A stretch of 64,000 bases of DNA. It comes from Escherichia coli. Lineage in GTDB: Bacteria > Pseudomonadota > Gammaproteobacteria > Enterobacterales > Enterobacteriaceae. Made by a program: the position numbers and the translations under genes. Location of the stretch: assembly GCF_002854065.1 (NCBI RefSeq), contig NZ_CP024147.1. One strand, given 5' to 3'. Below, piece by piece: positions 7,373-64,000 of the stretch. The notes beneath the pieces are model-generated. The model was not told the origin of the DNA, ran no database searches, and was given only the letters and a program-made list of their open reading frames with translations. Each line of letters begins with the position of its first letter. Within the stretch, counting starts at the first letter, position 1.

Positions 7373-7459
7373 AAATCCCGACCCTGAGGGGGTCGGGATG
7401 AAACTTGCTTAAGCAAGAAGCACTTAAAAAATTCGTTACACCAGGAAATCTGATGTGTT
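7373..7459 (-). ncRNA. dsrA: DsrA small regulatory RNA (Hfq-dependent; activates rpoS translation, represses hns)
   Basis: Reverse complement reads AACACATCAGATTTCCTGGTGTAACGAATTTTTTAAGTGCTTCTTGCTTAAGCAAGTTTCATCCCGACCCCCTCAGGGTCGGGATTT, matching DsrA as I recall it, including the terminal GC hairpin plus U-tract. Confidence 0.9.
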
Positions 7460-11686: not shown

Positions 11687-12607
11687 ATGCGTTTCCGCCA
11701 GTTATTACCGCTTTTTGGCGCGCTGTTTGCGTTGTATATCATTTGGGGCTCAACCTATTTTGTCATTCGGATTGGCGTGGAAAGCTGGCCTCCATTAATG
11801 ATGGCGGGCGTTCGATTCCTGGCAGCCGGTATTTTATTGCTGGCATTTTTGCTACTGCGCGGACACAAGCTCCCCCCGCTACGTCCGCTGCTCAATGCCG
11901 CGCTGATTGGCCTGTTATTGCTGGCTGTCGGTAATGGCATGGTGACGGTTGCCGAACATCAAAATGTTCCTTCCGGCATCGCCGCCGTAGTGGTTGCAAC
12001 CGTGCCCCTCTTTACCCTGTGCTTCAGCCGCCTGTTTGGCATTAAAACGCGCAAACTGGAATGGGTGGGTATTGCCATTGGGCTTGCCGGAATCATCATG
12101 CTCAATAGCGGTGGAAATTTAAGCGGCAATCCGTGGGGCGCGATTCTGATTTTAATCGGCTCGATTAGCTGGGCGTTTGGCTCAGTTTATGGCTCGCGCA
12201 TTACCTTACCTGTAGGGATGATGGCGGGTGCGATTGAGATGCTGGCGGCAGGCGTGGTGTTAATGATCGCGTCGATGATTGCGGGTGAAAAACTGACGGC
12301 GCTCCCTTCCCTTTCAGGCTTCCTTGCGGTCGGCTATCTGGCGCTGTTTGGTTCGATTATCGCCATTAACGCTTATATGTATTTAATCCGCAACGTCAGT
12401 CCGGCTCTCGCCACCAGTTACGCCTACGTTAACCCGGTGGTCGCGGTCTTGCTGGGTACGGGACTGGGCGGAGAAACGCTGTCGAAGATTGAATGGCTGG
12501 CGCTCGGCGTAATTGTCTTCGCGGTGGTACTGGTCACGTTGGGAAAATATCTCTTCCCGGCAAAACCCGTAGTTGCGCCAGTTATTCAGGACGCATCAAG
12601 CGAGTAA
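11687..12607 (+). CDS. yedA: EamA/DMT-family transporter YedA
   Basis: 306 aa ORF with about 10 transmembrane segments, recognised as YedA. Confidence 0.85.
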   Translation: MRFRQLLPLFGALFALYIIWGSTYFVIRIGVESWPPLMMAGVRFLAAGILLLAFLLLRGHKLPPLRPLLNAALIGLLLLAVGNGMVTVAEHQNVPSGIAAVVVATVPLFTLCFSRLFGIKTRKLEWVGIAIGLAGIIMLNSGGNLSGNPWGAILILIGSISWAFGSVYGSRITLPVGMMAGAIEMLAAGVVLMIASMIAGEKLTALPSLSGFLAVGYLALFGSIIAINAYMYLIRNVSPALATSYAYVNPVVAVLLGTGLGGETLSKIEWLALGVIVFAVVLVTLGKYLFPAKPVVAPVIQDASSE

Positions 12608-13066
12608 ATGAATCCCCTGCGTGTCGATCTGCGCGCTGGCACCTTCGCCGCAGATCCACTCTTCCAGACGCTCGCTAAGCGCTTCATCCGTCAGCTTCTC
12701 GCGCCCACGTAACGCGCACTCCCAGACAATCAATACGCGCCAGCCGAGTTCCTGCAAGCGACTGATATCGCGGCGATCGCGCTCAACATTTTTACCTATC
12801 TTCTCCAGCCAGAACTCGGTTCGAGTCGCAGGCACTTTAAACAGATAGCAGTGATGATGGTGCCAGAAGCAGCCGTGGGTAAATATCACGCAGCGATATT
12901 CATCAACGACAAAATCCGGGCGTCCGGGCAGACTGGCGTCCTGAACGCGAAACGCCAGGCCCTGCCCGGTTAACAGACTGGCGAGGCGCTTCTCAATCGC
13001 CGTATCACGCGTGGCAATCGCGCGCATATTTTTGCTGCGAGTGGCCTTATCGTGAACGTCGGCCAT
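12596..13066 (-). CDS. vsr: Very-short-patch repair endonuclease Vsr
   Basis: 156 aa from internal ATG ([18 protein letters not shown]…); its 5' end overlaps the 3' end of dcm by 20 bp in another frame, the arrangement known for dcm-vsr. Confidence 0.9.
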
Positions 13067-14465
13067 GTTGTGCCTCTTGCTGACGCAACGCCACCGCCTG
13101 TTTGATTTTTGGCTCAAGCAGTTTTGCCACCGCGGCAAAGACCGGCACGACCACCGAGTTACCGAACTGGCGATAGGCCTGAGTGTCCGAAACCGGAATG
13201 CGGAATTTCGCTTCTCCCGGCGCTTCAAAACCCATTAAGCGCGCGCATTCCCGAGGCGTTAACCGACGTGGACGATGTTGCTGATTCAGCGGATCGTCAA
13301 AGTCTTTTTCACCCGTGGCCATATCCCATCCGCGATCGATTAAAATTTCCGCGCCATCTTTGTAATAACGCGCAGACAGCGTACGGGTGACGCTTTGCGG
13401 ATTGTTCGGATAAACCATTCCATAACCGAAGCCGTTACCGCGCGCCTGATGTTTTTTCGCATATCGATAGAGGTACTTCCACAGTACCGGCGTCAGGATA
13501 TATTTCGCCTCGACCATCGGGTCCAGCAGCTGCGCCAGCGTCACTCGCTGCGCAGGGAAACATCCGCTGATATCACGCAGAGTAAAATCGGCTTTCAGAT
13601 TAAGATCGCGACGAAAACCCACCAGCACGATGCGTTCACGGTGCTGCGGCAGAAAATGTTTACCATCGATGATTTTCGGATCGTCCGGCCCGTTATCTTC
13701 TGCATCAGCCACGTCATAGCCCAGTTCGTCCAGCGTCTTCATGATGATGCGGAACGTTTTACCCTGGTCGTGGCTTTTCAGGTTTTTGACGTTTTCGAGC
13801 ACAAACATCGCCGGACGACGCGCGTCGATAATGCGCACCACATCAAAGAACAGCGTGCCCTGAGTATCGCAGGCAAAACCGTGCGCCCGCCCGAGCGAGT
13901 TCTTTTTCGATACGCCAGCCAGCGAAAATGGCTGACAAGGGAAACCGGCCAGTAAAACATCGTGTTCAGGAATGTGTTGACGAATATGTTCCGCCGCCGC
14001 CTCATCACTCACGCCTTCTTTATGGCTGAGGGTGATGTCGCGGATATCTTCATTAAAATGATGCGTCGCCGGGTCGCAATAATGGTTGGCTTTATAAGTG
14101 CGTACCGCATGTTTGTTCCATTCGCTGGTAAACACGCATTGTCCGCCAATCGATTCAAAACCGCGACGGATACCGCCAATTCCGGCAAATAGATCGATAA
14201 AGCGAAACGCATAATGCGGATGATGTGCCGGTGGTTTGGGTAACAACGTTTGCAGATGGGCGAACTCTTTCTCACTTAAACGGTGCCATGCCGAGTCATT
14301 CGTCAGCGCACGTTTTAAAATTGCCGCGCTCCAGTGATTCTCACCCACAACATTAAGCTGCGCCACCAGCGTTTTAACATCATAAATTTGCAGCAGTTTC
14401 TCCAGCATTGCCTGTGCGGCATTCCCGGTGCTGTATGAATCGGTTACTGATATATTTTCCTGCAT
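13047..14465 (-). CDS. dcm: DNA-cytosine C5 methyltransferase Dcm (CCWGG)
   Basis: 472 aa ORF with C5-MTase motifs (FAGIGG, PCQPFS, ENV), recognised as Dcm. Confidence 0.9.
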
Positions 14466-14531: not shown

Positions 14532-15227
14532 TCAGCCCGCGGGTGAAAACGCATCTATCACCTTGTGATCGACACCTTCATTCTCCCCCGCCAGTTCGGC
14601 ACTGAGCTTCGCCATAAACTCGACTAAAAAATGCGCGTTGTGCTGCGCCAGCTGCTTGCCTCTTACGGTTTGCATGGTTTGCGGTAGCTTCAGCAACTTA
14701 GTCTGGAAATGATCCAGCGCGTAACGTTTATCATCAAGCGGGCGATGCTGTGCGAGCGGATCTTCGGCATCAAACAGCGCCACGCCCAATGCCCCTGAAA
14801 CGGCAAACACACGTGCCAGGCCAATCGCCCCCAGGGCTTCCAGCCGATCCGCATCCTGGACAATTTTAGCTTCCGTGGTTAAGGGGGCGATTTGCGCGCT
14901 GAAACTGTGAGCGGCAATGGCATGACAAACGGCCTCAATTTTCTCCGCCGGAAATTGCACGAACTCTTCACGGAGCAGGCGACGCGTCTCTTCTGCCGCC
15001 AGGATTGAAGAACGCTGCCGTTGCGGATGATTTTTCGCCAGGCTCACAATATCGTGGAAATAACAGGCTGTTAAAATCACCAGCATATCGACATCGTCAT
15101 CTGCCGCCAGCTTCTGTGCCGTAGCCCAGACGCGGCGAAAATGACACACGTCATGAGCCGCGTCCTGGTGCTGATGATGGTTTTTCAACCAGTTTTCGAA
15201 CTGTGCCTGCCAGTGTTGTAAGTCCAT
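14532..15227 (-). CDS. yedJ: HD-domain phosphohydrolase YedJ
   Basis: 231 aa ORF with an HD motif region, syntenic with dcm. Confidence 0.85.
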
Positions 15228-15266: not shown

Positions 15267-15650
15267 TTATTCATAGCGTCTGCTACGTGCGGGACGAGGT
15301 CGGGTGTACCAGGCAATGCTGCCTAACAATGCCCCGACCAGAGCCATAAATAAAAATCCGACCAGTGCCCCTAACCACTTTTCCGCGGTAGAGCCTAAAT
15401 CGCTTTCAAATCCCGACACGGGGGCATCGGGGATCCGGCTAATCACCCAGATGTAACGCGCCATTGCCCAGACGAAATAGCCACACCATGTATAGAAAGC
15501 CCACAAAGCCAGTTTGCCGCCAGGGCTGCGAGAGAGTCTCTCTTCCATCTTTGTCGAACCGTATTCCATTTTGAGATAACCCGGAAAATTCAGACTAAGC
15601 ACTATTATGTGATAAAAGTCACATTTTTCCACATTGAATGAGCCAGTCAA
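15267..15650 (-). CDS. yedR: Inner membrane protein YedR
   Basis: 127 aa ORF with two transmembrane helices; the exact start is uncertain (internal Met possible). Confidence 0.7.
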   Translation of the reverse strand: MTGSFNVEKCDFYHIIVLSLNFPGYLKMEYGSTKMEERLSRSPGGKLALWAFYTWCGYFVWAMARYIWVISRIPDAPVSGFESDLGSTAEKWLGALVGFLFMALVGALLGSIAWYTRPRPARSRRYE

Positions 15651-15860
15651 GACTCAATCATTTTTTGAACAAATAGATAAATTTTGCGCAACGGCAGTGA
15701 ATACAGGAAAAATCGTTTTGAGCGATTTTATTTATCTTTGATATCGGCTTTATTAATTCATTCAATCAATATATTAGCACTGATTACAATTATACCTTTT
15801 TATTATTCTGTGTCATGATGCCTCCGTTATTAGCCTTTTATCGTCTTGTTTATATTTTTT

Positions 15861-15890
15861 GGGCCGGCATGATGCCGGCTTTTTTTTATG
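15861..15890 (+). terminator. Orphan intrinsic-terminator-like hairpin (GGGCCGGCATGATGCCGGC plus T8)
   Basis: Perfect GC-rich stem followed by TTTTTTTT on the plus strand; no plus-strand gene is annotated upstream. Confidence 0.4.
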
Positions 15891-25496: not shown

Positions 25497-25586
25497 TGGC
25501 GGAGAGAGGGGGATTTGAACCCCCGGTAGAGTTGCCCCTACTCCGGTTTTCGAGACCGGTCCGTTCAACCGCTCCGGCATCTCTCC
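25497..25586 (-). tRNA. serU: tRNA-Ser
   Basis: Reverse complement gives a 90-nt GGAGAGATGCCGGAGCGG…TTCAAATCCCCCTCTCTCCGCCA with long variable arm and encoded CCA. Confidence 0.9.
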
Positions 25587-26577: not shown

Positions 26578-26653
26578 TCCTCTGTAGTTCAGTCGGTAGA
26601 ACGGCGGACTGTTAATCCGTATGTCACTGGTTCGAGTCCAGTCAGAGGAGCCA
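26578..26653 (+). tRNA. asnT: tRNA-Asn
   Basis: 76-nt TCCTCTGTAGTTCAGTCGGTAGAACGGCGGACTGTTAATCCGTATGTCACTGGTTCGAGTCCAGTCAGAGGAGCCA; anticodon GTT. Confidence 0.95.
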
Positions 26654-26773: not shown

Positions 26774-26965
26774 CTATGAACGCCATCACCATTTTCCCCT
26801 CGATTATAAAACTTGAGTTATTCAGTAGTCTCCCCTCTTGCAACTCACACCCAAAACTGCCTAACGAAAAGTTATTAATTTTCAATCATATTGCTATCAG
26901 GATTTACATTTTTTCGCTGTGCTAGAAAGGGCGCATTTATGTTAGCTCGTTCAGGGAAGGTAAGC

Positions 26966-34969
<8,004 letters not shown>

Positions 34970-40529: not shown

Positions 40530-40649
40530 TTATATTTTAAAGAAATCTGTCTTTATGGCAGATTTCTTTAATCTCATATAATCCTTATAAAAAATATAAT
40601 GTTTAACTCGTCATATTGCTTATAAAAAATCCCCGGTAATGACTCCAAC

Positions 40650-41153
40650 TTATTGATAGTGTTTTATGTTCAGATAATGCCCGATGACTTTGTCATGCAG
40701 CTCCACCGATTTTGAGAACGACAGCGACTTCCGTCCCAGCCGTGCCAGGTGCTGCCTCAGATTCAGGTTATGCCGCTCAATTCGCTGCGTATATCGCTTG
40801 CTGATTACGTGCAGCTTTCCCTTCAGGCGGGATTCATACAGCGGCCAGCCATCCGTCATCCATATCACCACGTCAAAGGGTGACAGCAGGCTCATAAGAC
40901 GCCCCAGCGTCGCCATAGTGCGTTCACCGAATACGTGCGCAACAACCGTCTTCCGGAGCCTGTCATACGCGTAAAACAGCCAGCGCTGGCGCGATTTAGC
41001 CCCGACGTATCCCCACTGTTCGTCCATTTCCGCGCAGACGATGACGTCACTGCCCGGCTGTATGCGCGAGGTTACCGACTGCGGCCTGAGTTTTTTAAAT
41101 GGCGGAAAATCGTGTTGAGGCCAACGCCCATAATGCGGGCGGTTGCCCGGCAT
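40650..41153 (-). CDS. insB: IS1 InsB' (expressed as InsAB' transposase by -1 frameshift at the A6C motif)
   Basis: 167 aa ORF recognised as IS1 InsB; an AAAAAAC slippery site (reverse strand) lies in the insA/insB overlap near 41090. Confidence 0.9.
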
Positions 41154-41347
41154 CCAACGCCATTCATGGCCATATCAATGATTTTCTGGTGCGTACCGGG
41201 TTGAGAAGCGGTGTAAGTGAACTGCAGTTGCCATGTTTTACGGCAGTGAGAGCAGAGATAGCGCTGATGTCCGGCAGTGCTTTTGCCGTTACGCACCACC
41301 CCGTCAGTAGCTGAACAGGAGGGACAGCTGATAGAAACAGAAGCCAC
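41072..41347 (-). CDS. insA: IS1 InsA
   Basis: 91 aa ORF ([30 protein letters not shown]…) recognised as IS1 InsA. Confidence 0.9.
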
Positions 41348-41663
41348 TGGAGCACCTCAAAAACACCATCATACACTAAATCAGTAAGTTGGCAGCATCA
41401 CCAAAATCCCCGTTCTCAGAGAAATAATATTTATTAAAATGGCAGGTCTTCTTTTTCTGATTACCGAAGACAAAGTGGCAATTACGTATAGTTTCCCGAT
41501 AAAGACACGACAGCAACATCCCGCATAAGGCATTGTTCTCTTTATCTTTGTACGGTACTTCATGGAACAGAGATTTTGACCTTGCGAATCGTGATGTCTG
41601 TTGGGGGCAATTTGCTCACTGAAGCGTGAGACTCGATTAAACGCACGAAACACAGAAATCAAA

Positions 41664-41757: not shown

Positions 41758-41833
41758 TGGCTCCTCTGACTGGACTCGAACCAGTGACATACGGATTAAC
41801 AGTCCGCCGTTCTACCGACTGAACTACAGAGGA
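41758..41833 (-). tRNA. asnW: tRNA-Asn
   Basis: Reverse complement is identical to the 76-nt asnT sequence; TTGACA-17-TAATAT promoter on the minus strand at 41852-41880. Confidence 0.95.
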
Positions 41834-43581: not shown

Positions 43582-43657
43582 TCCTCTGTAGTTCAGTCGG
43601 TAGAACGGCGGACTGTTAATCCGTATGTCACTGGTTCGAGTCCAGTCAGAGGAGCCA
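43582..43657 (+). tRNA. asnU: tRNA-Asn
   Basis: 76-nt sequence identical to asnT. Confidence 0.95.
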
Positions 43658-45990: not shown

Positions 45991-46066
45991 TCCTCTGTAG
46001 TTCAGTCGGTAGAACGGCGGACTGTTAATCCGTATGTCACTGGTTCGAGTCCAGTCAGAGGAGCCA
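45991..46066 (+). tRNA. asnV: tRNA-Asn
   Basis: 76-nt sequence identical to asnT. Confidence 0.95.
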
Positions 46067-57271: not shown

Positions 57272-57460
57272 TTACTCGCTTGACTCAGGATCGGTGAATA
57301 CTCCATCTTCATAAATCCATCCAATTCTGCATGGTATTCCGTCTATTTTAACAACCTGATAATCATCAAAAATATGCCCCTCACCATCCCATATAACAAT
57401 ATTTACAACTATTCCATCTGTAATTAATGCATATCTCATGCAAACTCCTCCACAAGACAA
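57272..57460 (-). CDS. Hypothetical small protein downstream of the tail fibre (possible tail-fibre-associated protein)
   Basis: 62 aa ORF overlapping the 3' end of the tail-fibre gene by 25 bp; no recognisable family. Confidence 0.3.
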
Positions 57461-58362
57461 ATACCATCAGCACCTTCACCACCATAAAAACGCGTGGAGA
57501 AGACCTGCGTGTCATATGCGCCAGCGCCGCCACCGCCAGGGACTAATGCTTTCGCAATTCTCGGTGAATATACAGTACACTGCCCCGCTCTTCGGCTGCC
57601 ACCCCAAAAGCTTGAACCGCCGTACCCATTAAGGAACCTAGTATTATTTTGGCCATCTCCGCCATCTCCGCCGGCTAGATTTACATCACCACCAGACCCG
57701 GCAACTCCAACGCCGCCTGATGCATATACAGTGGAAGCAGTGGACGGGTTTCCGCCTGTGGCAACCATCCCACTAAATGTTGAGTTACCGCCTTTTGTTG
57801 CCTCAGTTCCGCCAGCACCGATAACCACGGCAAAGTTTGTGATGTCAGCAATATTGAACCATTTGATACCTGTAGCGCCTGCAGCCCCCCCAGCACCGGA
57901 AAAGTTATCGGTTGGGGAACCACTATTAAAAGCGCCACCTCCGCCACCACCCCCTCCCGTTAGAGTTACTTTGATGCGCTTCGTCAGCGGGTTTAGCGTT
58001 ACTGTTTTTGATGAGGTGATCCACTGCTCGGCAATCTTCCTACCTACGTATCCGTTGGTATCTCCCAAATCAAGGTTTGCGAGAGCCGTTTTCACCGTGC
58101 CATCCGATTTGATATCGCCAAACGGATTCTTGCGGCTTAACAGCAGAGCACGAAGCGCGGTAAGCAACTGGTCGTGCCGCGCCTTCTCCAGACTGGCACC
58201 AGATGCCTCAACAACGCTACAAAGTTCTTCCTGCAACATGTCAAAGTAGTCATCATCCAGATCGGTGGCAGGCGTGCCAGTCTGGGGGTTACCACGGGTA
58301 AAACCGTTCTTACCCGCGCCGAACTTATCCTTCTGCGCGGTTTTCGTGTCTATACGATGCAT
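57436..58362 (-). CDS. Phage tail fibre protein (Gly-rich)
   Basis: 308 aa; conserved phage-fibre-like N-terminus then Gly-rich repeats including GGGGGGGG, at the fibre position of the module. Confidence 0.65.
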
Positions 58363-58365
58363 GGA

Positions 58366-58950
58366 TTACTCCGGATATTTAAAAATTACGTAGGTATGCG
58401 ACGGGCAGAGTTTGTTAAGCACACACTCGACAACGGTGTCGCCCCAGATACGCAGTGCGGAATCACAGGGATCGCCACATGTCATCCAGGTGGTGTTGGT
58501 GGTGGTTGGCATGTTGACATGCCAGTAATACCGCCATTCCGGCGCATTCACCGCGTCAGTACAGGCCGATGAGCAGGTGAACGTGCTTTTGTCGTATCGC
58601 GTGATGGTGGCATCTGGTCTGCCCAGGGCAGCAAGCTGTGCAAGATAAAAATCCTCGTTGATGCCGCCCGCCAGGTTAACCTTCGCATCCAGCCGTTGCT
58701 GACGCTGGCGAAGGGTCTGCGTTCCCGCCGGAATACATTCATCCGGCAGACCGCACAGACGCTCCCAGCGGTTTATCAGTTCAGTGGTGGTGCGCGGATC
58801 CAGCTCCCGCATCAGGGCATCCGCACGCTGATGAACACGGGTTAATGACGGTGCCGCACCGGCAATCGCCGGATCGCTGGCTGACCACGCCGGACCGGGC
58901 GGCAACAGTGCCGATAACAGGCGGATGTAATCATCGTTTGTCACGTCCAT
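58366..58950 (-). CDS. Phage tail protein, YmfQ / Mu gp48-like (DUF2313)
   Basis: 194 aa ([22 protein letters not shown]…), positioned between the baseplate J gene and the fibre gene. Confidence 0.6.
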
Positions 58951-59999
58951 GAAATCGTCCCCAGTACCGCCAGTTCGTTTTTCGCAATGGAGATATTGTC
59001 CACCGGTGCAAGCAACTGATGGCTGTATTCCCCGTTCGCACCGGAAATCGCCTCACTGATACGCGACACCTTCAGTTCTCCCTGCGGATAACCATCACGC
59101 AGCAGGAACGAACGCAACTCCGCGGTGATGGCAGCCCGTATTTCCGGTGTATCCGGCGTCACGCGGATATGAAAATCCACCGTATGTGCCACCGGCCTGA
59201 ACACATACAAGTCAGAACCTGCCACCGGGGCCAGTGGCCCGATATGTTGTATTGCCGCCGTTTCCGTTGATTCTTCCGGAATGGGATTAATCAGGTCACT
59301 GCTGGCAATCATCACACCGACAGTTCCCGTTCCCATCCAGTGACGGTATGTCCATGCGCGGGTAATGCCGGGCACTTCTTTAGCCCAGACGACATAGTCC
59401 CCGTCAGCCCCGCCCTGCGGCGTCCAGTAATACCGCTCAATGACGCGGGCGCGCCACGTTTCCAGATCTTCAGTATCGAATCCGCCAGTCAGGGTATCTG
59501 CAACACCGGAAGACGGCAGACCATTCACCGGCGTGACTAGGATTAATGCCGTACCGTCGTCAGCGTTACCGACCGCGCCTGCATTTGAGCAAGTGATCGG
59601 CACACGCAGGACACCACCGGAGCTGGTTGCATCGGCAGTTGCCGTGTACTGAACCAGGTCATCGCGCTGAATCACGCTCCCGGCAGTCACCTTCAGGCCA
59701 TCGCTGACACCTTCCCAGCGCATATACCCGCTGGCAGCCGTGGCCCCCTTGCGCGGACACCGTTTCATCGCAGCATGTCGCGCCAGCCAGGACTCATCGC
59801 ACAGGTCAGGCAGCATATTCATTGCCAGATAATCGATGTACCCGTAGACCGTATGCAGCGCCGCCGCATACACCTTTGCCCGCACGTCTTCATCCATGCG
59901 CCGGAGCGTGTTGCTGACGTCCAGCCTGGCGAATAAATCGTTACGGAGCATACTGATATTTTCTGCCAGCGTCGGGCGCTGAAATTCACTGTCCGCCAT
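58941..59999 (-). CDS. Baseplate J-like protein (Mu gp47-like)
   Basis: 352 aa with baseplate_J family features; overlaps neighbouring genes. Confidence 0.7.
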
Positions 60000-60414
60000 G
60001 CGTTATCGCACTCCACAGATCATCAAAAGAAATCATTACCGGTCCGTCACGACGCCAGAGAGTGATACTGTTACCCAGTTCATTAATCCCGGTACGGCGG
60101 ATATCCAGATCAATACGGGACACCACGCCGTCATCAATCATCCATTGCAGGCATTCGCGGATATATCCCCTTACCGTCTGCACCAGCTGATTGGTCAGTT
60201 TGCTGCGCTGAAGCAGCCACAGTCGGGAGCCGTAACGGTCATTCTGTACCGCAGGCCAGGTATCCCCCCACCATCCCATCGGGACGTCGGCGTTGTCATC
60301 AGGCTCCGCCCGCCGCCAGGTAAACAGGGAAATCACCACGGCGCGGGTCAGCGGATCCAGCGGTGCGCTGGCGCAGGTGCGTTTACCGTTCACCGTCAGC
60401 CACAGTTCCATCAT
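59986..60414 (-). CDS. Phage GP46-family baseplate protein (Mu gp46-like)
   Basis: 142 aa, position and size as for Mu gp46. Confidence 0.55.
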   Translation of the reverse strand: MMELWLTVNGKRTCASAPLDPLTRAVVISLFTWRRAEPDDNADVPMGWWGDTWPAVQNDRYGSRLWLLQRSKLTNQLVQTVRGYIRECLQWMIDDGVVSRIDLDIRRTGINELGNSITLWRRDGPVMISFDDLWSAITHGGQ

Positions 60415-60959
60415 GCCTCCATCGCTTTATCAGGTTTGTCGGTGTTACTGCCCTGACCGTTCTCTCTGTGACGATGCCCGTTATAGGCAAGCCGCATCGC
60501 TGACATGGTGGTGCCGCCGGAGTCGCACAGGTCTTTCACCTGTCCGGTCACTTCCAGGTCCATTTCAAAACGTGCTTTAGGTGAATTGCGAAACGTGATC
60601 GTTTTACCTGCACCGTCCACCACGATCCCCTCCCGGGTCAGCGTCACGGACTGCCCCTGATCGTCATAGACAGCCACCTCACCCGTCTGCAGCCCTTTCA
60701 GGCGGTAGCGCCGGTCCGACACCGTAACAACCACCGCATGAGAACGGTCGCCATCCGGAAACAACACCACCGCTTCCGCACCGCTGTTTGCCCTTGCGGT
60801 AAAACCGTAGGGTTCAAGATGTTCAACCCCGGCTTTGGGTTCACCGGCAATCAGGGACACATCCACGGTCTGACATTTCGTGGCGGCACTGATGCTTTTC
60901 ACCACGGCCCGCCCAATCAGGCCGAGGAGTTGTCGCTGCATGGCTTCAATCGTCCTCAT
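60411..60959 (-). CDS. Baseplate assembly protein V / spike (Mu gp45-like)
   Basis: 182 aa; gpV-type OB-fold N-terminus; 4-bp overlap with the downstream gene. Confidence 0.6.
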   Translation of the reverse strand: MRTIEAMQRQLLGLIGRAVVKSISAATKCQTVDVSLIAGEPKAGVEHLEPYGFTARANSGAEAVVLFPDGDRSHAVVVTVSDRRYRLKGLQTGEVAVYDDQGQSVTLTREGIVVDGAGKTITFRNSPKARFEMDLEVTGQVKDLCDSGGTTMSAMRLAYNGHRHRENGQGSNTDKPDKAMEA

Positions 60960-62038
60960 CAGAACGGGTCCTCCTGTACTCTGGCTTTTTTCTTTTTCCG
61001 CGCGCCGGGGGCTTCGGGTTCAGGCAGATAAGCATCAGGTGGGCCGACACGGATTTCCGTCAGGGTGCCGTTCTGGTCCTGAGTAAACGTGACTTCCGAA
61101 ACAAGCAGTTCGGTATTGTCGAAACCACAGACCGGATCAAAGACAATCACCCGCTGGTTGGGCTGCCACAGCGTACCGTTACACTGTCGCCAGCCCTGCA
61201 CCACATAGGTGGTTTCATCCGTCCGCGCCGCCCGTTGTCTGGCTTCAAAGTCCGCACGGGCAATACAGCCTGCCCCCGTAGCCTGCCCTGTCTGCCTGAT
61301 ATACATCGGACGGTAACGGGCAATAAATGCGTCCTCTGTGCGGGCCCGCAGCGCGGTGGTGGTGGCCTCACCGAAATCATCGTCGTTTCCGGCACGCTGC
61401 CCCGCCACCTGGTAAACAGAAAACCGCTCCCGGATACTCTTCTCCGTATCGCAGGAAAGGATGTTTTCCCCGAGTACCAGCGCAGTATGTGCCCGAGTTG
61501 AGCCAATACCGCCAATCACCAGCCTGCCGTGCGGGTCGTCGTAAGCCAGTGCCTGCTGCTGACCGAGTATTTTGTTGATTACCTCAATCACCGTTTCACC
61601 GTGATCAGGCTGAACATCAGGAATAACACCCGACGGCGCACCGCTGTTCACCACCTCAATGCCGAAAGGCGCAGCAAGCGCCTGCGCAATCTGCACCAGC
61701 GAGCGTCCGTTAAACTGTGTCGGTTCGGCTGCACAGTCAATCAGGTCAGCCGTCAGACTACGTCCGACAATACCGGTGCTGACCGAACGGGAATCGTAAC
61801 GAACGGGCGTCGCCTCCACCCAGCCGGTGATCACCAGCTCATCACCAATCAGCACTTCCACTTTTGAACCGTTTTTAATGCGCGGCTGAAGCGTGGTGAT
61901 ACCCTCATCTCCCGGCCACTGGCGGGTGATCTCCACACTGAAATCCCGCGCCAGCCGTTCAATACCGGCACCGATGCGCACCGATGTCCAGCCATTCCAC
62001 TCCCGGCCATTTACCCGTAGCGTGACATTGTCGTTCAT
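60959..62038 (-). CDS. Mu P-like tail/baseplate hub protein (Mu gp44-like)
   Basis: 359 aa (MNDNVTLRVNGREWNGW…), position and length as for Mu P. Confidence 0.6.
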   Translation of the reverse strand: MNDNVTLRVNGREWNGWTSVRIGAGIERLARDFSVEITRQWPGDEGITTLQPRIKNGSKVEVLIGDELVITGWVEATPVRYDSRSVSTGIVGRSLTADLIDCAAEPTQFNGRSLVQIAQALAAPFGIEVVNSGAPSGVIPDVQPDHGETVIEVINKILGQQQALAYDDPHGRLVIGGIGSTRAHTALVLGENILSCDTEKSIRERFSVYQVAGQRAGNDDDFGEATTTALRARTEDAFIARYRPMYIRQTGQATGAGCIARADFEARQRAARTDETTYVVQGWRQCNGTLWQPNQRVIVFDPVCGFDNTELLVSEVTFTQDQNGTLTEIRVGPPDAYLPEPEAPGARKKKKARVQEDPF

Positions 62039-63375
62039 TGCACTGGCACCTTCAGAGGGATCACCGGCACAAAGCCGGGATGCGTAATGGCATTACGCCG
62101 GATAATGTCCGCGTCACGCGCCGCGTTATCAAACCAGGTCGCCGCCAGCACCAGCGCGGGTAAAACCTCATCCGGTGTGCGCTGAATGATCCGTGCAGAC
62201 TGTTCAAGGCGCGTGTTGATATCCGCATTCAGATCTGCTTTCACCCGGCGCAGCGCCAGAAACAGCGCATCACTGGTTGTACGGGACAACTCCTTATCAA
62301 TTGCCGTATTCAGTGTGTCGCGAATGTCAGTCAGTTCTTCCCACGTCGGCAGGTCAACCGTGTTTTTCACCGCCGGTGCATTGTTCAGTGCCGGATGCGT
62401 GACGGAAGGCCAGCCAGTGCTCTGCGCGGGTGTTGTTGCCTGCCCCACTGCGGCATTCTGCATCACCGCGGAAGTTGTTGGCGCAGGCAATCGGGTGACG
62501 GCATACGCCGCTTCGCTGATTGCGGTCGTACGAAGGGTGCTGGCAACCACGTTACGCTGCTGCGTCGCCGTGGCGGTGGTTTTACTGTCCGTTTTCCAGA
62601 CGCCGCGCGGTTGCAGATCGCTGCCGAGGCTGACACCGGAAAGCGTTTTGATCATGGTGACCAGGTCGCTGGCGTTACCATAAAGGCGTTTCCCGGTACG
62701 CCACATTTTCTGCACCTGCTCAACGAAATTTTTGCCTGACGATGGCGGCGGCAGAAGTACCGAGATATCCCCCTGCAACAGCCTGGCGGCATCCGATACG
62801 GCAGAATCCACCACTTTCATCGCATCAGAAACATACCCCAGCATTATGCTGGCATTACCGATAACGTCGTTCTGCACGAAATCCGCAACACCATCGATAC
62901 TGAAACCGCTGAAGCTGTCACTGATGCAGTCATCCAGTGCAGAACAGGATGACATCAGCGTCTGCGCCGTCGCCGCACCTGATGTGGGGTAAGAGAGTTC
63001 TCCTGCTTCGACAAACTTCAGGTCAAAGCGGACAATACGCCCTTCACTTTTCGATGTGCTGACCCGAACTTCCCCGTCAACACAGACTTTCAGCTCACCA
63101 TATGTCGGGTGGACAAGCGTGCCTGGACCGGGTTTATTCAGCGCGTCAATCAGGCGATCGCGCTGGTCAAAGCAGTCATCTCCCACCACATAAGCTGTGA
63201 TGGACGGGCGGAAAGTGATTTTCCCCAGGTCTTCGGTATAGGGTTTGTCGCGGTTTGGGTATTCATGCGTTTCAACCCGACGTCCTACCGGGGCCCCTTC
63301 ATCTTCTACCTTGAACGGAACGCCGCGAAACGACGCTTCAACCAGTCTGTCTTTCCACGCCATTGTCTGCACCAA
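62035..63375 (-). CDS. DNA circulation protein N-like tail protein (Mu gp43-like)
   Basis: About 440 aa with conserved N-terminal …ASFRGVPFKVE…; start is ATG at 63363 or upstream TTG/GTG at 63375/63372. Confidence 0.6.
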   Translation of the reverse strand: MVQTMAWKDRLVEASFRGVPFKVEDEGAPVGRRVETHEYPNRDKPYTEDLGKITFRPSITAYVVGDDCFDQRDRLIDALNKPGPGTLVHPTYGELKVCVDGEVRVSTSKSEGRIVRFDLKFVEAGELSYPTSGAATAQTLMSSCSALDDCISDSFSGFSIDGVADFVQNDVIGNASIMLGYVSDAMKVVDSAVSDAARLLQGDISVLLPPPSSGKNFVEQVQKMWRTGKRLYGNASDLVTMIKTLSGVSLGSDLQPRGVWKTDSKTTATATQQRNVVASTLRTTAISEAAYAVTRLPAPTTSAVMQNAAVGQATTPAQSTGWPSVTHPALNNAPAVKNTVDLPTWEELTDIRDTLNTAIDKELSRTTSDALFLALRRVKADLNADINTRLEQSARIIQRTPDEVLPALVLAATWFDNAARDADIIRRNAITHPGFVPVIPLKVPVQ

Positions 63376-63465: not shown

Positions 63466-63523
63466 TTTTGCCGTTAATACTGGGTTTGTTGCTAGCCGTT
63501 TTCATAGGACGGTGGGCTTGGTA
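63466..63523 (+). pseudogene. 5' fragment of a plus-strand gene interrupted by IS1 (hydrophobic N-terminus MEMFLPLILGLLLAVFIGRWAW)
   Basis: Strong SD AAGGAGAGG 6 nt upstream of the ATG at 63466; the frame runs into the IS1 end where TAA is created at the junction. Confidence 0.35.
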
Positions 63524-64000
63524 ATGACTCCAACTTATTGATAGTGTTTTATGTTCAGATAATGCCCGATGACTTTGTCATGCAGCTCCACCGATTTTGA
63601 GAACGACAGCGACTTCCGTCCCAGCCGTGCCAGGTGCTGCCTCAGATTCAGGTTATGCCGCTCAATTCGCTGCGTATATCGCTTGCTGATTACGTGCAGC
63701 TTTCCCTTCAGGCGGGATTCATACAGCGGCCAGCCATCCGTCATCCATATCACCACGTCAAAGGGTGACAGCAGGCTCATAAGACGCCCCAGCGTCGCCA
63801 TAGTGCGTTCACCGAATACGTGCGCAACAACCGTCTTCCGGAGCCTGTCATACGCATAAAACAGCCAGCGCTGGCGCGATTTAGCCCCGACATAGCCCCA
63901 CTGTTCGTCCATTTCCGCGCAGACGATGACGTCACTGCCCGGCTGTATGCGCGAGGTTACCGACTGCGGCCTGAGTTTTTTAAGTGACGTAAAATCGTGT
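63521..64000 (-). mobile_element. IS1 insertion sequence (partial; continues past the window end), same orientation as the IS1 at 40635
   Basis: Starts with GGTAATGACTCCAACTTATTGAT and is near-identical to 40635-41114 over the visible 480 bp; encodes the InsB' C-terminal portion (63535-63912 ORF). Confidence 0.9.

Follow-up and report, generated by a model that had tools for sequence, protein, structure and literature searches.

The dcm-vsr gene pair of an Escherichia coli chromosomal region and its 20-bp overlap

The dcm and vsr genes present in the window (the whole stretch of 64,000 nucleotides of E. coli DNA analyzed here) are the standard chromosomal locus of the species, intact, nearly identical to that of K-12 and already known. 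The best explanation as a whole is that of a standard E. coli dcm-vsr pair in which the production of Vsr is linked to that of Dcm, a reading to which we assign a probability of about 0.93. In every testable respect the pair belongs to the known system, with five amino-acid substitutions overall relative to K-12, and no evidence contradicting its identification was found in the analysis. The value of the case lies in correct annotation only, since it brings nothing new on methylation-linked repair or on gene overlap.

The two genes and their products

The dcm gene occupies positions 13047..14465 on the minus strand. Both the ORF listing and direct reading place its ATG start codon at 14465, and its 472 codons are followed by a TAA stop (13049-13047), which is included in the coordinates. 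In profile searches the product, a DNA-cytosine C5 methyltransferase of 472 aa, matched Pfam PF00145 (DNA_methylase) with 1.3e-76 and 258.6 bits against a cut-off of 22, and NCBIfam NF007772 ('DNA cytosine methylase') with 948.4 bits against a cut-off of 710; a match to Pfam PF18284 (DNA_meth_N) was also obtained. The protein is identical to K-12 Dcm at 468 of 472 residues, the substitutions being G39V, A55T, Q243K and E301G, and it matches over its full length the PDB entry 3me5, which is one of the solved Dcm structures together with 3lx6. In C5-methylases the FxGxG motif binds AdoMet and PCQ holds the catalytic Cys, the other motifs being ENV, QxRxR, RE and GNxV. All of them are intact here, with FAGIGG at residues 93-98, PCQ at 176-178 (Cys177), ENV at 224-226, QHRER at 274-278, RE at 405-406 and GNSV at 435-438, and the ten conserved positions that were checked over the whole set of motifs are the same as in K-12 and Salmonella. 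Given its identity to K-12 Dcm, the protein would be expected to methylate CCWGG sites at their second C in vivo. The E. coli dcm is a solitary methylase gene, and there is no restriction gene beside it in the 64-kb window.

The vsr gene, also on the minus strand, extends over positions 12596..13066, from an ATG at 13066-13064 to a TGA stop at 12598-12596 (included), and its 156 codons were established from the ORF frame and by direct reading. It encodes the very-short-patch repair T:G mismatch endonuclease (156 aa), which in the profile searches matched Pfam PF03852 (1.2e-39, 134.4 bits; cut-off 27) and TIGR00632 (182.7 bits; cut-off 97.85). The identity to K-12 Vsr is 155/156, T131S being the sole change, and the same substitution is the only difference from PDB 1cw0 across residues 2-156; 1vsr and 1odg are further solved structures of the enzyme. 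In an alignment of eight sequences, with homologues down to 41% identity, residues D51, H64, C66, F67, W68, H69, H71, C73, W86, D97 and C117 were invariant. We take D51, H64, H69 and D97 to be the catalytic or metal-binding residues, C66, H71, C73 and C117 the zinc ligands, and F67, W68 and W86 the intercalating residues. Judging from its near-identity to the characterized K-12 enzyme, this Vsr would nick 5' of the T in T:G mismatches within CTWGG/CCWGG (PMC2715241).

At its 3' end, vsr converges with yedA (11687..12607, plus strand), an EamA-family exporter gene recognized as an ORF and by profile matches. The two genes overlap tail to tail by 12 bp at 12596-12607 (TCAAGCGAGTAA), an overlap that is likewise annotated in K-12 and Salmonella, so that vsr is overlapped at both ends.

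The overlap and its conservation

The overlap between dcm and vsr covers 20 bp at 13047..13066 on the minus strand (ATGGCCGACGTTCACGATAA), and by direct reading these bases are read in two frames. Of these, the first 17 belong to sense codons of dcm and the last three form its stop codon. Both genes lie on the same strand, and the start codon of the downstream one falls within the upstream ORF in another frame, the vsr ATG beginning at the second base of the dcm His467 codon (cAT Ggc), which places vsr in frame +1. The preliminary description had set the vsr start at 13066 inside dcm, with the dcm stop at 13047 and a 20-bp overlap in a different frame, and this proved exact to the base when compared with the ORF listing and the sequence itself; the span that it gave, 12596-13066, is exactly the vsr coding sequence with its stop. 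Its statement that both genes are intact also holds, as both are full ORFs that retain their motifs and the K-12 identities given above.

The arrangement in K-12 (b1961/b1960) is the same in its neighbors (yedA, yedJ, drpB and rseX), in the protein lengths (472 and 156 aa), in the 20-bp +1 overlap with an identical junction sequence, and in the 12-bp overlap between vsr and yedA. It differs by about 1.8% nucleotide divergence across both genes and by the four Dcm and one Vsr substitutions. The bases of the overlap are the same as in K-12, and over 161 nt around the junction a single difference was found, well downstream of the overlap. RefSeq annotates an equal 20-bp overlap in K-12 MG1655 (vsr 2030448-2030918, dcm 2030899-2032317), in E. 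coli strain 100416, and in two divergent E. coli lineages whose identity is 96.4% and 97.4%. Furthermore, when the 2.3-kb dcm-vsr region was used in megablast, the locus was found in 5367 of 5426 complete E. coli genomes, with dcm, vsr, yedA and yedJ annotated in every match listed, and the region was 100% identical in two genomes of the collection, strain 100416 among them. All 39 full-length E. coli matches sampled, which spread from 100% down to 96.4% identity, span exactly 1870 bp, and hence there are no net indels.

In Salmonella enterica the synteny drpB-yedJ-dcm-vsr, the convergent yedA and an annotated 20-bp overlap are all present. The overlap bases are identical to those of E. coli at 19 of 20 positions (95%), compared with 76.7% for the whole of dcm and 79.2% for vsr, a conservation that fits a dual-coding constraint in what is a small sample. 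Unlike the pair described here, the Salmonella Dcm has 476 aa and is 84% identical, Vsr is 87% identical, the Shine-Dalgarno (SD) region reads GAGAGA..., and a TAG in frame with vsr stands directly before its ATG.

This last difference bears on the length of the Vsr product. Mechanically, the vsr-frame ORF extends to a TTG at 13228, which would give 210 aa, and in the four E. coli sequences examined (4/4) no stop interrupts the frame over the 56 codons that precede the ATG within dcm. Vsr could on these grounds be made partly as a longer product, either through upstream initiation in its frame or through a +1 frameshift yielding a Dcm-Vsr fusion. However, by a simple estimate about 7% of random 54-codon off-frame stretches are free of stops, and in Salmonella the TAG leaves no upstream codons open, so the extension is not conserved. 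In addition, both the Vsr profile and the 1cw0 chain have their first residue at position 1-2 of the 156-aa protein, the crystallized Vsr beginning at Ala2. With the Salmonella stop and the start of the structure against them, an N-terminal extension and a Dcm-Vsr fusion were rejected as very unlikely, and we consider them the least probable of the alternatives discussed here.

The 20-bp overlap that goes with a vsr start at 13066 is the longest co-directional overlap in the equivalent region of about 64 kb as annotated in strain 100416. The other co-directional overlaps annotated there (hprR/hprS, fliO/fliP, fliM/fliN, fliJ/fliK and cobU/cobS) are of 1 or 4 bp. Chance is not at issue, since the overlap is an orthologous and conserved arrangement. 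Plasmids of Neorhizobium petrolearium and Acidithiobacillus ferrooxidans carry a vsr homologue (41-43% identical) next to and downstream of a C5-methylase gene in the same orientation, and here too the vsr start overlaps the stop of the methylase gene, but there the overlap is of 8 bp (ATGGCTGA / GTGCCTGA) and not of 20 bp. Moreover, those plasmid cassettes are complete type II restriction-modification systems with the restriction gene next to the pair, whereas the E. coli dcm is solitary. The presence of 8-bp overlaps on unrelated plasmids makes the overlap of a methylase stop with a vsr start a recurrent theme of variable geometry.

Among the genomes sampled, only E. coli CM13 (NZ_CP114893.1, 3982-4071) has vsr without dcm. 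We considered it as a natural uncoupling of vsr from dcm and rejected this, as the sequence there is a Keio-type scar end (…TAAGGAGGATATTCATATG) joined to the last 72 nt of dcm; the engineered delta-dcm leaves the overlap in place, together with the start codon and the SD of vsr. It should also be mentioned that two matches to dcm-vsr in the E. coli collection come from records described as plasmids, and that PLSDB holds a 4.8-Mb E. coli 'plasmid' and a 500-kb Salmonella 'plasmid' with the chromosomal dcm-vsr neighborhood. Such labels are probably wrong, the records being chromosomes or fragments.

Relation of vsr translation to dcm translation

Upstream of dcm and in the same orientation is yedJ (14532..15227, minus strand), an HD-domain phosphohydrolase gene identified by Pfam PF01966, NCBIfam NF007515 and annotation. 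Further upstream is drpB (yedR; 15267..15548, minus strand), mapped over from the annotation of strain 100416 and the first gene of the reported operon. Full-length transcripts obtained by SMRT-Cappable-seq have shown yedR(drpB)-yedJ-dcm-vsr to be one operon, and dcm and vsr have been described as co-transcribed (PMC4924334; PMC12907096 citing Sohail 1990). A sequence scan of the coding strand found no terminator-like site between dcm and vsr. As candidate promoter of the operon, a consensus scan gave as its best match upstream of drpB a sigma-70-like ATGACA-16-TATAAT (11/12) at 15789..15816 on the minus strand. This consensus match sits antisense inside the 5' part of the rseX small-RNA gene (15797-15886, plus strand; Rfam, 99 bits), which is divergent from drpB. 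From yedI through rseX the stretch is colinear with K-12 at 98.4%, and the upstream control region is therefore K-12-like.

The proposed mechanism starts from the drpB-yedJ-dcm-vsr mRNA that carries both genes. On it, the vsr start and a Shine-Dalgarno-like AAGAGG (13073..13078, minus strand; a match to consensus-type sequence, 6 nt upstream of the vsr ATG) lie within the last dcm codons, with the dcm stop 17 nt downstream of the vsr AUG, and a ribosome terminating on dcm would cover or adjoin the vsr initiation region. With the terminating ribosome on or near the vsr start, the synthesis of Vsr would be tied to that of Dcm, and cells making the mutagenic methylase could then make the matching repair enzyme too. 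The coupling itself would operate through ribosome hand-over or through unmasking at the junction.

Support for such a link comes from the dcm-6 allele, whose effect on Vsr Dar and Bhagwat reportedly ascribed, in 1993, to dcm having to be translated, in other words to translational coupling. This nonsense mutation in dcm codon 45 also abolishes Vsr activity, and the overlap has been reported too (PMC4444293 citing Dar & Bhagwat 1993). The preliminary description had called the arrangement known and translationally coupled; the coupling finds support through that paper, while the term "translationally" goes back to a secondary citation. A literature search combining vsr/dcm with translational coupling returned no match, the older primary papers being beyond its reach. 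The polarity of dcm-6 could in principle be transcriptional (Rho-dependent) and not translational.

Masking of a ribosome-binding site by mRNA structure that is opened by upstream ribosomes is one common mechanism of coupling, although not an obligatory one. A possible imperfect hairpin of 56 nt (13040..13095, minus strand; MFE -21.3 kcal/mol) spans the vsr SD, the AUG and the dcm stop. The junction, folded in a 120-nt context, was no better than shuffled sequence (z = -1.13), and in the comparison with Salmonella the outer stem was broken, with no compensating changes. A hairpin masking the vsr start is thus unsupported as the coupling device.

These results have to be weighed against an alternative in which the overlap would be a compact operon junction only, with vsr translated mainly de novo from its own SD and its dependence on dcm due to Rho-dependent polarity. 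The putative vsr SD, with its 6-nt spacing, pairs with the anti-SD at -5.8 kcal/mol, which ranks third among the 31 ATGs inside dcm, and the lack of a significant or conserved masking structure at the junction points in the same direction. Since this SD is respectable by itself, some initiation at vsr independent of dcm is plausible. In the same sense, the 72 nt of dcm kept before vsr in the engineered deletion reflect a design that assumes vsr to be expressible. Furthermore, stationary phase has been reported as the main period of VSP repair (PMC2715241 citing Macintyre 1999). This implies that Vsr is subject to further control, so that the coupling is not the sole control on it. Against this alternative stands the dcm-6 nonsense mutant, which has lost Vsr activity and for which Dar and Bhagwat reportedly invoked a requirement for dcm translation. 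The 19 of 20 overlap bases conserved between E. coli and Salmonella and the recurrence of start/stop overlaps in unrelated methylase-vsr pairs speak against it as well, as both would be expected if the geometry of the junction matters. On balance we regard a merely compact junction as unlikely, although it is the strongest of the competing explanations, and we retain the reading in which Vsr production is linked to that of Dcm.

Expected methylation status and other features of the window

Dcm methylates the inner C of CCWGG, and when 5mC is deaminated a T:G mismatch results. In very-short-patch repair Vsr nicks the DNA 5' of this T, after which the C:G pair is restored by Pol I and ligase (PMC2715241, PMC3467078). 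The link between cytosine methylation and T/G mismatch repair, which had been pointed out from the start, is therefore well established. When vsr was added to dcm, methylation-induced reversion fell from about 55-fold to about 4-fold over the control (PMC3467078), and a benefit of having vsr next to dcm has been reported (PMC3467078, PMC2715241).

The strain is presumably Dcm+ Vsr+, as indicated by intact K-12-like genes, unchanged motifs and a K-12-like upstream region. The genes could nevertheless be intact in a strain that is Dcm-negative or weak, either through the four Dcm substitutions or through poor expression of the operon. Three of these substitutions (G39V, A55T and Q243K) are absent from all four other sequences compared, and the start of dcm itself has a poor SD, with an anti-SD duplex of -3.3 kcal/mol. 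However, the ten conserved motif positions are all unchanged, and the substitutions affect either the N-terminal accessory domain or variable positions and leave the conserved catalytic motifs untouched, with G301 common to another natural lineage. The colinearity with K-12 upstream, through rseX, and the presence of 5mC at CCWGG in the three field isolates (3/3) of one methylome study (PMC11963381) also argue against a defect, and we consider it improbable. Slightly less probable still is that the Dcm of this lineage differs quantitatively in activity or partners, or that Vsr output is set otherwise than by ribosome hand-over. A candidate for such other control is the best promoter match of the operon, which, being antisense to rseX, could link dcm-vsr expression to rseX transcription. 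No data arguing for an altered Dcm or for rseX-linked expression were seen in this analysis. An intact and standard Dcm/Vsr pair predicts 5-methylcytosine at CCWGG, which is relevant to cloning, to restriction-enzyme sensitivity and to the interpretation of methylomes.

The window contains 146 CCWGG sites, of which those at 12955 and 13763 fall within dcm-vsr. Against a maximal-order Markov expectation, the observed/expected ratios in the window were 0.76 for CCWGG, 0.50 for CTAG and 0.8-0.9 for CTWGG. As an oligonucleotide footprint of VSP repair or of Dcm, these values are uninformative in 64 kb and have no bearing on the Dcm status.

As for the window in its entirety, its counterpart in the E. 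coli chromosome is the fliI-to-sbcB side. Where it aligns with strain 100416 the identity is 98.8-99.9%, but the placement of IS1 is different. Copies of this element are found at 40634-41402 and at 63520-64000, the latter cut by the end of the window, and strain 100416, the closest genome, instead carries an IS1 between drpB and the porin gene (around position 15748 of the window), where the window has none. The DNA of the window is therefore that of a near relative of strain 100416 and does not belong to the 100416 assembly itself. At 57436-63375 (minus strand) there is a block of tightly packed genes with Mu-like phage tail and baseplate domains (DNA_circ_N, GpP/gp44-like hub, Mu Gp45, GP46, Baseplate_J, Mu Gp48 and a glycine-rich fibre-like protein). 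The block abuts IS1, has no counterpart at that place in strain 100416 and is probably what remains of a prophage.

In addition, a single uninterrupted ORF of 2692 aa at 26891-34969 (plus strand) encodes a YeeJ-like adhesin, with internal repeats of about 88% identity around 30001-31299. At this position strain 100416 is annotated as having fragmented or frameshifted inverse-autotransporter and Ig-like-domain pseudogenes, and the adhesin gene appears intact in the window. Four tRNA genes with identical Rfam scores lie at 26578-26650, 41761-41833, 43582-43654 and 45991-46063, and correspond to tRNA-Asn in the annotation of a related genome; one of them directly adjoins the IS1 at 40634-41402. 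A tRNA-Ser is located at 25500-25586, and the DsrA small RNA (7373-7459, minus strand; Rfam, 102.5 bits) lies between the dsrB/rcsA-side genes, as in K-12. The G+C content of the whole window is 48.7%, a value to which the adhesin, the IS copies and the prophage-derived segments may contribute.
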